IMG/VR virus record: IMGVR_UViG_3300028048_000123 | Coordinates: 1-64,000 of that record | Reading direction: 5' to 3' (one strand) | From: a virus | Taxonomy: Duplodnaviria > Caudoviricetes | Length of the DNA stretch: 64,000 nt | Shown here: positions 38,720-64,000 of the stretch, piece by piece | How positions within the stretch are numbered: the first letter of the stretch is position 1 | Layout: each line of letters starts with the position of its first letter | Program-made: the position numbers and the translations under genes | The notes under the pieces: model-generated | Databases searched by the model: none | Told to the model about the DNA's origin: nothing | The model's input: the letters and a program-made list of their open reading frames with translations, nothing else

Positions 38720-40564
38720 TTATTTTACATTTAACAAGCCATTACATTTTGGGTAGTTAGAACAGCCATAGAAGTTCTTGCCGTATTTGCTTCTTCGCAG
38801 TACCATTTTAGCTCCACATTTTGGACAAATAGGTGCATCTTCATCACTTTGACCTATAAGCTCTTTATTGTTTTTAATAGTATTCTCTAAGTTGTTATAG
38901 AAGTTATTTAAGAAGTCAAGCTTTTTCATTTTTCCTTCAGCTATCTTATCTAAGTCAGCTTCCATATCCTTTGTATAATTTAAGTTAATTACATTAGAGA
39001 AATTTCTATCTAAGAATTCAACAAGCTGTATTCCTCTATCTGTTGGCACAATAGCTTTATCTTTAAGCTCAGCATAACCTCTTGAAGCACTTAACACAGT
39101 TTCAACTATTGTAGCATAGGTAGATGGTCTTCCGCAGCCATTCTTTTGAAGCTCTTTAATTAGCGTTGCTTCTGAAAATCTTGGTTTTGGCTTTGTTTGT
39201 TTTTTGACGTCTTCTAAGCTTGTATCTTGAAGCTTTTCACCCTTCTTAAAGGTTTCTTTAACCGGCCCTTCTTCTTTACTGTCCTCATCTTGATATGAAT
39301 ATACCTTTCTATAGCCTAAGTCTTGTATTTCATTTGAGATTAAAATAAACTTTTCACCTGTATTATCAATTAAATATTGTGTTTCAGCTATCTTGGCGTT
39401 AGGAAGAGCTGATGCTACAGTACGTTGCCAAATAAGCTTGTACACTTTTTGATTTAATTGGCTTGAGTCTTTTGCAGCAAATACTTCTGGTGTTAATTCT
39501 GGGTTTGTAATTCTTAAACATTCATGGCCTTCTTGAGCATTTTCTTGCTTTTTGCCAACACGTGGTGTGGTCCAAGAAGCTTTACCATAATTATTTTCAA
39601 TATAGCTTTGTAAAGTTGGAATAAATTCTGCTGCAAATTCTGTATCATCTGTACGCATATAAGTTATCGCGCCTGCTTCAAATAACTTTTGAGCAATAGT
39701 CATAGCATCTTTAACTTTTAAGCCAAGTTTACTTGAGGCTTCTTGCTGGAATGTTGCAGTACAGAAAGGTGGCTTTGGTGACTCTTCCTTAACCCTACTT
39801 TTAATATCTTCAATTAAATAGTCTTTTTTACAATTAGCTTTTAATTGGTCTACAGCAGCTTGTGTAGTTAAGTGGTCTATATTTCCAACTGTTTCATTAC
39901 CAGCATATTTAGCCTTAAATTCAGTACCATTTTTCTTAAAATGTAAATAAACATCAAAATATGTTTCGGGCTTGAAGTTTTGTATTTCTTTTTCTCTATC
40001 TACAACTAGTTTTAAGCCCACTGACTGACATCTACCAACTGATCTTGCTCCAATATATCTCTTTGCAATTGGGCTGGCAACAAATCCAAGCATTTTATCT
40101 AATGTTAATCTAGCCAAACCAGCATCAACTAAAGCATCATTAATATCAATAGGGTTTTCAATGGCTTTAACAACAGCTTTTGGTGTAATTTCGTGTGTAA
40201 CAGCTCTTCTAATTTTATTTTTTGGAAGTTTTAAAAATTTAACTAAACTCCAAGATATAACTTCACCTTCACGGTCAGGGTCTGACATTAAATAAACCAA
40301 GTCTGCTTGTTTTGCTTGTATTTTTAGCTGTTCGACAACTTTATGCTTATCTTCAGAAACCTGTAAATTTAATTCAAAATTATTGGTAGGCTCTATACCA
40401 GAATTATAATAAGTACCACCATTAGCTAATTCCATAATATGGCCAATAGATGCTACTACATTAATATTATAGCCTGCTTTTTTAAGATATTCTTTAATAT
40501 GTGCTGTCTTATTAGGGCTTTCACAAATTACAAGTATCTTCTTATCCTTTAGTGTGTCTATCAT
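38720..40564 (-). CDS. topA: DNA topoisomerase I (type IA) with C-terminal zinc ribbon
   Basis: Toprim ICESPNK, DPDREGE, active site ITYMRTD, GRPSTYA, CPKC...CSNYPKC. Confidence 0.95.
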   Translation of the reverse strand: MIDTLKDKKILVICESPNKTAHIKEYLKKAGYNINVVASIGHIMELANGGTYYNSGIEPTNNFELNLQVSEDKHKVVEQLKIQAKQADLVYLMSDPDREGEVISWSLVKFLKLPKNKIRRAVTHEITPKAVVKAIENPIDINDALVDAGLARLTLDKMLGFVASPIAKRYIGARSVGRCQSVGLKLVVDREKEIQNFKPETYFDVYLHFKKNGTEFKAKYAGNETVGNIDHLTTQAAVDQLKANCKKDYLIEDIKSRVKEESPKPPFCTATFQQEASSKLGLKVKDAMTIAQKLFEAGAITYMRTDDTEFAAEFIPTLQSYIENNYGKASWTTPRVGKKQENAQEGHECLRITNPELTPEVFAAKDSSQLNQKVYKLIWQRTVASALPNAKIAETQYLIDNTGEKFILISNEIQDLGYRKVYSYQDEDSKEEGPVKETFKKGEKLQDTSLEDVKKQTKPKPRFSEATLIKELQKNGCGRPSTYATIVETVLSASRGYAELKDKAIVPTDRGIQLVEFLDRNFSNVINLNYTKDMEADLDKIAEGKMKKLDFLNNFYNNLENTIKNNKELIGQSDEDAPICPKCGAKMVLRRSKYGKNFYGCSNYPKCNGLLNVK

Positions 40565-40566
40565 TT

Positions 40567-41361
40567 TTAATCCTCTTTCTTATATTCCCATTTATATCCA
40601 CCAGCATTTTTTCGCTGGCCTTTACATACTCTACAAATATTGCCTACCTTTATATTTAATTCACTGGCAGCTTCAGAAAGGCTATTCCATTCTTTTATAA
40701 TAGCACCAGTAGCTATGTCTATTTGATTTATATGTATATTTCCTAATGTACCATTTTTAATTTTAGTTTCTAATGCTTTTGTATAGCTTTCTGGTAGCAT
40801 TTTTTGCAAAGCTCTTCTTTCTCTTATTTTTTGTCTTGTAGCTTCATCTCTATGTTTTCCTAACCAGTAGCGTCTTGGGTTTTTTAAATTATCTTGTCTT
40901 ATTTTTTCTTTTGTTTTAGCTGAATGATGTTTTCCTTTCATTGCAGATGGTTTACCATTTGGAAAAACTTCTTTAAGCCGCTGTTTAATTTTTGCTTTTG
41001 TTTCAGATGAATGCTTATAGCCAATTGATCCTTCACCACCTTTTGTTAAGTTATATCCAGCAGGTACATTATCATAAATATAAGTATGATAATAAGCTAT
41101 CCAGTATTTTTCTCTTTCATTGGCTTTTTCTATTGTTTCAATATTATCTTCTAATATTTCATGAGCCCAAGCTGTATCCCAGTTCTCTAAACCATGTTTT
41201 TTAATAGCCCTTGCAAATAAAGTATCTTCAGTTAAATAGCCTTTACCATCTTTCCATCTTTTATTTGGCTCATTAGCACAGGTTTGCCCGATATAGCTCC
41301 AGCCTTTATGGTCACAATCTATAATTAATGTATGTTTATAAATAATCCAACTCATAATCAT
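40567..41361 (-). CDS. GIY-YIG homing endonuclease with NUMOD3/NUMOD1-type domains
   Basis: IIYK...SYIGQT, EKYWI, GYNLTKGGEG, HSSETKAK, AGGYKW. Confidence 0.85.
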   Translation of the reverse strand: MIMSWIIYKHTLIIDCDHKGWSYIGQTCANEPNKRWKDGKGYLTEDTLFARAIKKHGLENWDTAWAHEILEDNIETIEKANEREKYWIAYYHTYIYDNVPAGYNLTKGGEGSIGYKHSSETKAKIKQRLKEVFPNGKPSAMKGKHHSAKTKEKIRQDNLKNPRRYWLGKHRDEATRQKIRERRALQKMLPESYTKALETKIKNGTLGNIHINQIDIATGAIIKEWNSLSEAASELNIKVGNICRVCKGQRKNAGGYKWEYKKED

Positions 41362-41372
41362 TTGCCTCTTAA

Positions 41373-41382
41373 TAATTTAGCA
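41373..41382 (-). promoter_or_regulatory. Candidate late promoter (GIY-YIG endonuclease)
   Basis: TGCTAAATTA just before the SD. Confidence 0.6.
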
Positions 41383-63249: not shown

Positions 63250-63269
63250 TGTTTATGCTCCTTCTATAT

Positions 63270-63278
63270 ATTATACAA
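63270..63278 (-). promoter_or_regulatory. Sigma70-like -10 element before the beta clamp
   Basis: TTGTATAATATA. Confidence 0.55.
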
Positions 63279-63280
63279 TA

Positions 63281-64000
63281 TTAATATTCTAAATCTATTC
63301 CTTCTGTGATAGCTTTGTAAATTGCTTCTTTTGGGAATTCTATGTGATTTTCATATATCTTTTCTAATGCCTCTTCTCTTGAAATTGGCGCAATGCCTTT
63401 CTTCTCATCGCCCTTTTCAAGCTTATCAAACTCAGCTCTGATAGAAACTGCTGCAGAATCAGCATACCAACGACTTACGTTGTAAGGGTCGCACTTCATA
63501 GCCGGAGCTGTAATACCAAGTTCAATAGCTGCATTAATCATAATTTCAGGAAGACGCTTTTCAACTTGTTCAGCATACTCTTCAGGACATTCAACTAAAA
63601 CTTCGTCGTGCACTGAAATAATCAAGTGTGTGTCCCATGCTCTTAATTGAGGATCTCTATAGATGTCAATCATAGCTTTTTTAGTAAGTGTTCCAGCAGA
63701 ACCTTGAATTAAAGCATTAAAACATTGTCTTTCTGCTTGTGCAATTCTACCAGTATTAGCTTGAATAATAACTGGTTCAAGCTTTTGTGTAGGCTCTTTA
63801 ACATACCAAACCTTTTTGCCATTTCTATATTCTTGGCGCATATGCTTTTCGCCATGTAAAGCTCTTATAGCCATTTTTGTATAACAAGCATTGCTGATTT
63901 CACCATTGCTTTTCCAAGATGGGTCTTTGCTTCTTTGCCATTCATCAGACCTTTGTATCTCTTCTGCTAATACTTCCTTCCAGTATTTAACTGAGTATGA
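63281..64000 (-). CDS. polA: Family A DNA polymerase, C-terminal part (continues beyond the window)
   Basis: RQCFNALIQGSAG and motif C VHDEVLVE; frame open to the window edge. Confidence 0.85.
   Translation of the reverse strand, partial: SYSVKYWKEVLAEEIQRSDEWQRSKDPSWKSNGEISNACYTKMAIRALHGEKHMRQEYRNGKKVWYVKEPTQKLEPVIIQANTGRIAQAERQCFNALIQGSAGTLTKKAMIDIYRDPQLRAWDTHLIISVHDEVLVECPEEYAEQVEKRLPEIMINAAIELGITAPAMKCDPYNVSRWYADSAAVSIRAEFDKLEKGDEKKGIAPISREEALEKIYENHIEFPKEAIYKAITEGIDLEY

Follow-up and report, generated by a model that had tools for sequence, protein, structure and literature searches.

Why does a phage that reads TGA as tryptophan (Trp) write its replication genes with TGG only, and does this division follow the time at which the genes are expressed? 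The question is raised by IMG/VR record IMGVR_UViG_3300028048_000123, a Caudoviricetes contig of 76,464 bp with 32% G+C, of which the first 64 kb (positions 1 to 64,000) form the stretch analysed here, called the window. An original prediction, made from the letters of the window, had held that the replication and recombination genes at 38.7-64 kb use TGG alone, that TGA is found almost only in units behind a short motif, and that these late units are locked in a standard-code host until the phage installs UGA suppression. The core of this idea, namely replication genes readable in the standard code and many late genes that would need later UGA decoding, fits all of the measurements and is partly supported. 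We judge it probable that the contig derives from a two-dialect phage, whose host most likely is of a Firmicute type with the standard code and many of whose late genes depend on a suppressor.

TGA as tryptophan and its uneven use

The gene table, which consists of curated code-4 calls, contains 83 genes, 82 of them complete, and every convincing gene of the contig is carried by the minus strand. Code 4 fused many split frames into full-length proteins, and family matches crossed the TGA sites of the portal, the large terminase, and three homing endonucleases. When the TGA sites of the contig were aligned with relatives, the opposite codon was TGG 62 times and TGA 58 times, followed by TAT, TTT, TTC, and TAC, and never a glycine codon. 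An alignment of 17 terminase sequences showed W, F, and Y in the TGA columns, which align to W/TGG in 16 relatives, and TGA codon 454 of a 936-aa protein (within 28055-38631) corresponds to TGG in four relatives. On the evidence of these alignments, TGA reads as Trp in the contig. It does not serve as a stop codon, since the 82 complete genes end in TAA (69) or TAG (13) and none in TGA, a point absent from the original prediction.

TGA was not evenly spread, with 47 TGA and 80 TGG at 1-38631 compared with 11 TGA and 100 TGG in the whole upstream arm (Table 1). The difference between the arms gave a Fisher p of 8.5e-7 at the codon level, which treats the codons of one gene as independent. The original prediction had estimated some 55 Trp codons in the replication genes, all of them TGG. 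This stood for 34 of the 37 genes at 38720-64273, which hold 67 TGG, but failed for the other three, which contain all 11 TGA and bring the total to 69 TGG; over the whole upstream arm, 46 of 49 genes are TGG-only (98 TGG, 0 TGA). The small genes at 14.4-15.9 kb, which had also been described as TGG-only, proved to be so at 14451-15685, with just 5 codons. It had further been argued that an AT-rich genome would favor TGA if this codon were free, and the out-of-frame ratio of TGA to TGG was indeed 2.3:1 in both arms. Because out-of-frame TGA exceeds TGG to this extent in both arms, the lack of TGA in the 46 upstream-arm genes indicates selection. TGA was present in 22 of the 83 genes (27%) here and in 61 of 311 genes (20%) in G004, a complete 230-kb relative (CheckV 100%) that is more distant (terminase 55% identical) and whose replication core is also TGG-only. 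SbcC of one relative (L057, 1071-2945) contains TGA in frame at codon 425 and had been predicted as a pair of genes; therefore, the replication/recombination arm is not TGA-free in every member of the clade.

The three TGA-bearing genes of the replication arm are an HNH homing endonuclease, an HNH endonuclease-like gene, and a sigma-like gene. The phrog_655 match of the first (57339-58415; E = 6.9e-16, residues 10-217) crosses TGA codons 83, 137, 162, and 213. In the second (61037-62029), phrog_655 spans residues 6-262 (E = 3e-5) and the paralogue alignment stops short of the TGA, which is ambiguous: it may be read through or be a genuine stop between two genes. Both TGA of the third (45499-46320) align to TGG and TGA in G004. 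Homing endonucleases are the most TGA-rich genes, with 15 TGA versus 1 TGG.

Two promoter-like motifs and a sigma-like gene

On the contig, the motif GCTAAATTA was found at 14 gene-strand sites and at 1 site on the opposite strand, compared with 3.3 expected in the window, and a similar strand bias was observed in G004 (36:3) and in G001 (17:1), an 82-kb relative with 88% nucleotide identity. Twelve of the 14 gene-strand sites are intergenic and lie 20-73 nt upstream of a start codon that has a strong Shine-Dalgarno site, often right after a terminator hairpin. The logo of GCTAAATTA consists of a single -10-like box with T at -1 and AT-rich flanks, and shows no -35 box. The second motif, TATTGTATAAT(AT), has a perfect TATAAT hexamer inside and is both intergenic and strand-specific: 11 of 16 sense copies and 0 of 16 antisense copies fall into intergenic DNA, which makes up 4.6% of the genome, and 65 intergenic copies were counted over three genomes. 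This motif precedes, among others, the genes for dUTPase, SSB, PolA, the clamp, ClpP, and the deformylase.

The promoter class of each gene was defined by its nearest upstream motif, GCTAAATTA or TGTATAAT/TGTATATT. An excess of TGA behind GCTAAATTA was observed in the same direction in all three genomes, with gene-level Fisher p values of 3e-6 for the contig (G000), 0.028 for G001, and 2e-7 for G004. The proposal that TGA occurs almost only behind the motif held for 51 of the 58 TGA of the contig, which lie behind GCTAAATTA, but not for the terminase, portal, and sigma-like genes, which bear TGA behind the other motif. Moreover, GCTAAATTA also leads TGA-free units, namely protease and capsid, adaptor and 1075-aa protein, and GIY-YIG endonuclease and topoisomerase. 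The link between GCTAAATTA and TGA is statistically supported but not exclusive. A test of the first gene after the motif was weak, and a generic sigma-70 promoter scan, which is uninformative in AT-rich DNA, gave no enrichment over shuffles. Farther along the contig, TGTATAAT (75853) is followed 26 nt later by GCTAAATTA (75827), in front of a gene that lacks TGA, encodes 674 aa, and matches Big_5 weakly; this tandem arrangement suggests dual early and late promoters.

The sigma-like gene at 45499-46320 adjoins SbcC, as do its orthologues in all relatives examined. Its family comprises 421 representatives, and an AlphaFold2 (AF2) model was built from 40 of them, with a predicted local distance difference test score (pLDDT) of 87.5. 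The top VIA-align match of the N-terminal domain was 7d7d_F, a chain confirmed as T4 gp55 (Z 8.4, root mean square deviation (rmsd) 3.0, 96 residues), although a Z near 8 is not decisive and is within the chance range for helical domains. About 20 sigma factors were among the 50 VIA-align rows; SigB, pro-sigmaK, SigC, sigmaE region 2, SigW, and others matched residues 12-120 with Z of 5.4-8.1. According to the model, the N-terminal domain adopts a sigma region-2 fold, which makes the protein a candidate late sigma factor. Besides the Z range, several results speak against a sigma factor: sequence and profile searches of Pfam, PHROG, and PDB gave no match, hhalign against T4 gp55 returned a probability of 0.1, and Foldseek with the model found nothing. 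A peptide-pattern scan of viral contigs detected no relative.

The TGTATAAT motif class upstream of this gene also precedes its orthologues in two relatives (L057, L058). Among ten family members with DNA, all seven recoded phages write Trp 218 as TGA, and two that use the standard code write it as TGG; Trp 44 is TGA in four members. We considered a feed-forward gate in which UGA decoding would control late transcription itself through the gp55-like sigma. The host-type TATAAT promoter would transcribe the sigma gene, and the full-length protein would need UGA decoding at residues 44 and 218. The suppressor tRNA would thereby license the sigma factor, the sigma factor would switch on the GCTAAATTA promoters, and many of the genes behind them would need the suppressor again; tRNA(UCA) behind TTGCTAAATTT in the complete relative would add positive feedback. 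The gate is a tentative model and, on balance, a doubtful one. A literature search found no paper on a recoded late sigma factor.

Suppressor, host code, and alternative explanations

The complete relative G004 carries eight tRNAs at one end and encodes a suppressor tRNA(UCA) of 96 nt (L035 (G004:C1) 2900-2995, minus strand) with A1-U72, G73, and a Trp-like anticodon arm. TTGCTAAATTT, a one-mismatch copy of GCTAAATTA, is located ~45 nt upstream. The long extra arm of this tRNA has the loop UCCAAA, which resembles the anticodon loop of Trp(CCA). The tRNA array and tRNA(UCA) are separated by a full-length ROOL RNA (RF03087, 252 bits) at L035 (G004:C1) 1356-1973 on the minus strand. ARAGORN and Rfam detected no tRNA or other RNA on the contig, which is a fragment, and neither release factors (PF00472) nor tryptophanyl- or tyrosyl-tRNA synthetases (TrpRS/TyrRS; PF00579) were found in five relatives.

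A terminase-profile scan of one genome per prokaryote species identified four contigs of metagenome-assembled genomes (MAGs) as binned relatives. The MAGs are titled Ca. Limenecus, Lachnospiraceae (two), and 'uncultured Tenericutes', and all four encode release factor 2 (RF2). The RF2 of the 'uncultured Tenericutes' MAG is a contig-end fragment that scored 348.6 bits with the prfB model versus 196.6 with the prfA model. The prfB match of one Lachnospiraceae-titled MAG (L052; G007:C4:9141-10181) contains two in-frame TAG by the prfB model or one TGA by the prfA model, possibly a programmed frameshift site or a coding oddity of the MAG. For the class to which two of the MAGs (G007, G009) belong, 399 genomes were sampled; they yielded ordinary tRNA-Trp(CCA) only, and the phage-type 96-nt tRNA(UCA) was not found at full length. 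The TGA-free early genes, the recoding of 27% of the genes, the suppressor tRNA of a relative, and RF2 in four MAGs are indirect evidence, by which a standard-code host is most likely; the support from RF2 is weak. Strong Shine-Dalgarno sites of the AAGGAG type stand before the start codons, and the closest cultured relatives are phages of Bacillus, Listeria, Streptococcus, and Clostridium at ~30% identity; these signals, together with RecU, would be best explained by a Firmicute-type host.

The genes of the contig are written in two dialects. The first comprises the genes behind the host-type TATTGTATAAT, mainly for replication, recombination, and nucleotide metabolism. Since TGA is avoided in them both as sense codon and as stop, they would be readable with or without UGA suppression. 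The second comprises the genes behind the phage-specific single-box GCTAAATTA, that is, packaging, tail, glycosyltransferase, and free-standing homing endonuclease genes, in which Trp is often TGA. We propose that their full-length products need a phage-supplied UGA-reading tRNA-Trp, such as that seen in the complete relative, and for this reason TGA-bearing proteins would accumulate only once the suppressor is abundant. The avoidance and use of TGA may represent an adaptive lock, or drift tolerated in genes that are expressed after the suppressor.

Several points weigh against this explanation. The timing is deduced from gene functions and promoter-motif classes, which serve as proxies, and the codon-level test between the arms carries the caveat given with it. 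A suppressor tRNA, a release factor, or TrpRS was not found on the contig or on its close relatives G001-G003, all of which are fragments. No link by spacers of clustered regularly interspaced short palindromic repeats (CRISPR) was detected, and a 20-kb BLAST against the four candidate MAGs gave matches of 26-39 nt outside repeat arrays; the phage-host links of the four MAGs come from binning alone and are weak. Terminase and portal, with 5 TGA, stand behind a TGTATAAT-type site, and the sigma-like gene has 2 TGA behind a host-type promoter motif. A test on the distance of Trp codons to the nearest upstream GCTAAATTA pointed one way in G000 and the opposite way in G001, and reached no significance in G004. 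Finally, the capsid, protease, adaptor, and 1075-aa protein are late-type but TGA-free, so that the lock is leaky as a rule. With 15 of the 34 late-arm genes lacking TGA, and TGA present in one early-arm gene with a host-type promoter, the claim that late genes are locked was too broad.

The capsid and protease bear on an alternative in which the partition reflects expression level or translational cost and not timing. Suppressor-mediated UGA decoding would be inefficient and would compete with RF2; TGA would be purged from abundant or truncation-sensitive genes, early or late, and AT drift would act elsewhere. Protease and capsid (17787-21010) contain 8 TGG and 0 TGA although they lie directly behind a GCTAAATTA site, and a strong terminator (17763-17739) follows them. 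Both genes are TGA-free in every recoded relative examined: capsid orthologues of six recoded relatives and the contig have 0 TGA in 23 Trp codons and the proteases 0 in 10, whereas among the terminases of this set TGA accounts for 72 and TGG for 81 Trp codons (47% TGA). The TGA-richness of the dispensable homing endonucleases and the mutational push seen in the out-of-frame ratio agree with such a cost. Because of the difference between capsid and terminase, it is concluded that a suppression-cost constraint on abundant proteins acts beside any timing rule. Cost alone, however, leaves unexplained some 46 TGA-free genes of the replication arm, many of which are small and surely not all highly expressed, as well as the dependence of TGA on promoter class in three genomes. 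As a replacement for timing this explanation is unlikely; the cost effect is compatible with the timing model and probably acts on top of it.

In a further alternative, UGA would be a native Trp codon of the host, with a Mycoplasma-like code 4, and the TGG-only arm would be left over from recent descent from, or exchange with, standard-code phages. The binned relative in the 'uncultured Tenericutes' MAG, the absence of genes ending in TGA, and the presence of standard-code relatives in the clade (G005, L061, L064) would be in line with this. However, that MAG encodes RF2, with a higher score for the prfB model, TGA occurs in only 20-27% of the genes compared with ~90% in phages of recoded hosts, the TGG-only arm is kept against the 2.3:1 bias and is common to G004 despite its distance, and the complete relative has its own tRNA(UCA). 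We consider a code-4 host very unlikely. RNA-level A-to-G editing to UGG, or TGA frames that are pseudogenes, came into question only because the contig has no suppressor and can be practically dismissed: over 12426-12653, a contig from a metatranscriptome matches the window exactly and retains both TGA of gene 12445-13365 (DNA carry-over is possible), and TGA and TGG interchange at conserved Trp columns of the essential terminase and portal over 16 relatives, which argues that the TGA frames are under selection. The four public runs over 8001-28000 consist of contigs, some of which come from RNA libraries and match the window identically; the metatranscriptome contigs are not time-resolved.

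Gene layout and known systems

G001 is collinear with 0.2-33.4 kb of the contig and runs 42 kb beyond it. Since G001 extends so far past the end of the contig and is itself only 41% complete (CheckV), the contig is a fragment. The public runs containing the sequence are bovine gut metagenomes, and the capsid protein belongs to the T4 gp23 type. The best explanation is that the window covers about one third of a large rumen phage genome of some 200 kb, with T4-like capsid and replication cores. From 5' to 3' on the minus strand, the genes begin with PolA in pieces, primase, DnaB, SSB, dUTPase, sliding clamp, RecU, and a UvsX-like recombinase, continue with ClpP, clamp-loader subunits, exonuclease, SbcD, and SbcC, and then reach a small-gene block, peptide deformylase, and type IA topoisomerase; packaging, head, glycosyltransferase/leucine-rich repeat (LRR), and neck or tail genes follow below 38.7 kb. 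In the replication arm, PHROG and Pfam matches identified the 5'-exonuclease, clamp-loader subunits, ClpP, UvsX-like recombinase, RecU, sliding clamp, PolA pieces, SbcC, SbcD, peptide deformylase, and type IA topoisomerase.

The family A DNA polymerase is divided into at least two pieces (656 aa; 321-330 aa), which occupy 63281-64000 of the window and continue on the contig to 67882. The pieces are split by an open reading frame (ORF) of 98-114 aa and a GIY-YIG homing endonuclease (contig 64391-65416), and Rfam gave no group I intron at this region. A peptide deformylase domain, contained in a 281-aa protein (41940-42785), and a ClpP-family protease (56657-57298) are encoded in the standard-code arm.

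The late region contains a stretch, 14451-22033, with 24 TGG and 0 TGA that the original prediction had missed. Its part at 14451-17675 encodes a helix-turn-helix (HTH)/NUMOD3 protein, a DNA methylase-like protein, and four small genes. A 36-codon ORF at 15815-15923, shorter than the 50-aa cut-off, has a good Shine-Dalgarno site and lies just behind a TGTATAAT motif and before a terminator (15781-15751). The unit at 8221-14288 is a late-type operon placed between head and neck genes, and TGA is present in 6 of its 6 genes. Two of these encode BspA-type LRR proteins, one a GT2-Stealth fusion transferase, and one a GT8-like transferase; the remaining two, on either side of the GT2-Stealth gene, are unknowns.

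Table 1. Positions of the arms, motifs, and genes discussed in the text, with their Trp codons
Feature	Position	Strand	TGA	TGG	Remarks
Lower arm	1-38631		47	80	34 genes, 19 with TGA
Upstream arm, first part	38720-64273		11	69	37 genes, 3 with TGA
Whole upstream arm	38720-76464		11	100	49 genes, 3 with TGA
Replication/recombination arm	38720-64000, on to 76464 on the contig	-			PHROG and Pfam matches
Genes of the contig behind GCTAAATTA			51	84	19 of 35 genes with TGA
Genes of the contig behind TGTATAAT/TGTATATT			7	89	3 of 44 genes with TGA
Intergenic GCTAAATTA sites in the window (11)	38689-38697; other starts 62069, 58443, 41381, 32863, 27981, 21450, 21061, 14325, 8042, 503	-
HNH endonuclease-like gene	61037-62029	-	1		TGA at codon 103; GCTAAATTA site 62061-62069 upstream
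HNH homing endonuclease	57339-58415	-	8	0	GCTAAATTA site 58435-58443, 28 nt upstream
TGTATAAT-type motif	46348-46362	-			Perfect TATAAT hexamer; 42 nt upstream of the sigma-like gene
Sigma-like gene (273 aa)	45499-46320	-	2		TGA at residues 44 and 218 (1-based); adjoins SbcC
Seven genes	28055-38631	-			Behind motifs at 38697 and 32863; 5 of 7 with one or two TGA, confirmed or likely
Packaging block	22053-27943	-			PHROG matches cross TGA sites
271-aa protein of packaging block			2
Homing endonuclease	26122-27138	-	7	1
Large terminase	24034-26085	-	4	7
Portal	22053-24005	-	1		TGA at codon 315
Prohead protease	19133-21010	-	0		phrog_138/phrog_207 matches (with capsid)
T4-type major capsid protein	17787-19091	-	0		phrog_138/phrog_207 matches (with protease)
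TGA-free island in the late arm	14451-17675	-	0	16	Behind TGTATAAT/TGTATATT-type motifs
Six-gene unit	8221-14288	-	19	10	Motif 14317-14325 upstream; terminators at both ends
Head-tail adaptor	7258-7980	-	0		10 TGG together with the 1075-aa protein
1075-aa protein	3993-7220	-	0		10 TGG together with the adaptor
Four TGA-bearing genes after the 1075-aa protein	3474-3983, 1631-3481, 523-1272, 1-444	-

Late transcription of T4 depends on the gp55 sigma, gp33, the sliding clamp, and a single-box late promoter, TATAAATA. The contig resembles this system in that its late-class motif is one -10-like box with no -35, the sigma-like gene stands beside SbcC/SbcD as T4 gene 55 stands near genes 46 and 47, the best structural match of the sigma-like N-terminal domain is gp55, and a clamp and clamp loader are present. 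In contrast to T4, there is no sequence similarity to gp55, the sigma-like protein has 273 aa compared with 185 aa in gp55, the sequence of the motif is different, and the 377-aa clamp belongs to the long, bacterial beta type. T4 gene 55, moreover, has no in-frame stop.

Borges et al. (10.1101/2021.08.26.457843; later Nat Microbiol 2022) described TGA-recoded phages in the guts of cattle, pig, and tortoise, in which TGA stops are nearly lost, suppressor tRNAs are found in only ~1/3 of the code-4 genomes, and an early-gene homing endonuclease strongly prefers TGA; they proposed a switch from the standard to the alternative code during infection. By their description, the contig resembles the 'Agate' and 'Jade' clades, gut phages that reassign TGA to Trp in standard-code hosts: TGA is used in structural or late genes and not in the neighbouring replication machinery, the genomes are large and come from the cattle gut, the TGA stop is nearly or wholly abandoned, tRNA(UCA) is present in some members only, a TGA-rich homing endonuclease occurs among the early genes, and close relatives use the standard code. 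It differs in that no RF1 or TrpRS 'code change module' was found in the relatives searched. According to the same study, ~90% of genes are recoded in phages of natively recoded hosts. Such phages (Mycoplasma, Spiroplasma; code-25 Absconditabacteria) share with the contig the use of TGA as a sense codon and never as a stop, but the contig has TGA in 27% of its genes and essentially none in one promoter class.

In crAss-like phages, TAG or TGA is reassigned only in the parts of the genome with putative late genes, switches of the code occur over short phylogenetic distances, and suppressor tRNAs are involved (Yutin et al. 2021; PMC7886860); the use of code 15 was validated by metaproteomics (Peters et al. 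2022; PMC9523058). Unlike the contig, crAss-like phages are podovirus-like, have Bacteroidota hosts, and encode their own giant RNA polymerase, whereas the contig has capsid and replication genes of the T4 type, strong Shine-Dalgarno sites, and relatives among Firmicute phages.

The original interpretation is therefore the published model, by which phages that infect standard-code hosts leave their early genes neutral to the code and use a reassigned stop in the late ones, re-derived here from raw sequence, and the contig is one more example from the rumen. Three features are added to the published picture, namely the division of the genes by two motifs, the lack of TGA in capsid and protease, and its presence in the sigma-like gene; the preprint of Borges et al. 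contains no mention of promoters, sigma factors, or the capsid protein. Two dialects that track two motifs in three genomes provide a sequence-level handle on early versus late genes. The TGA-free abundant virion proteins argue for a limit that the cost of suppression sets on recoding, and against a blanket lock. If confirmed, the conserved TGA in the late sigma candidate would tie the code change to the transcriptional programme.

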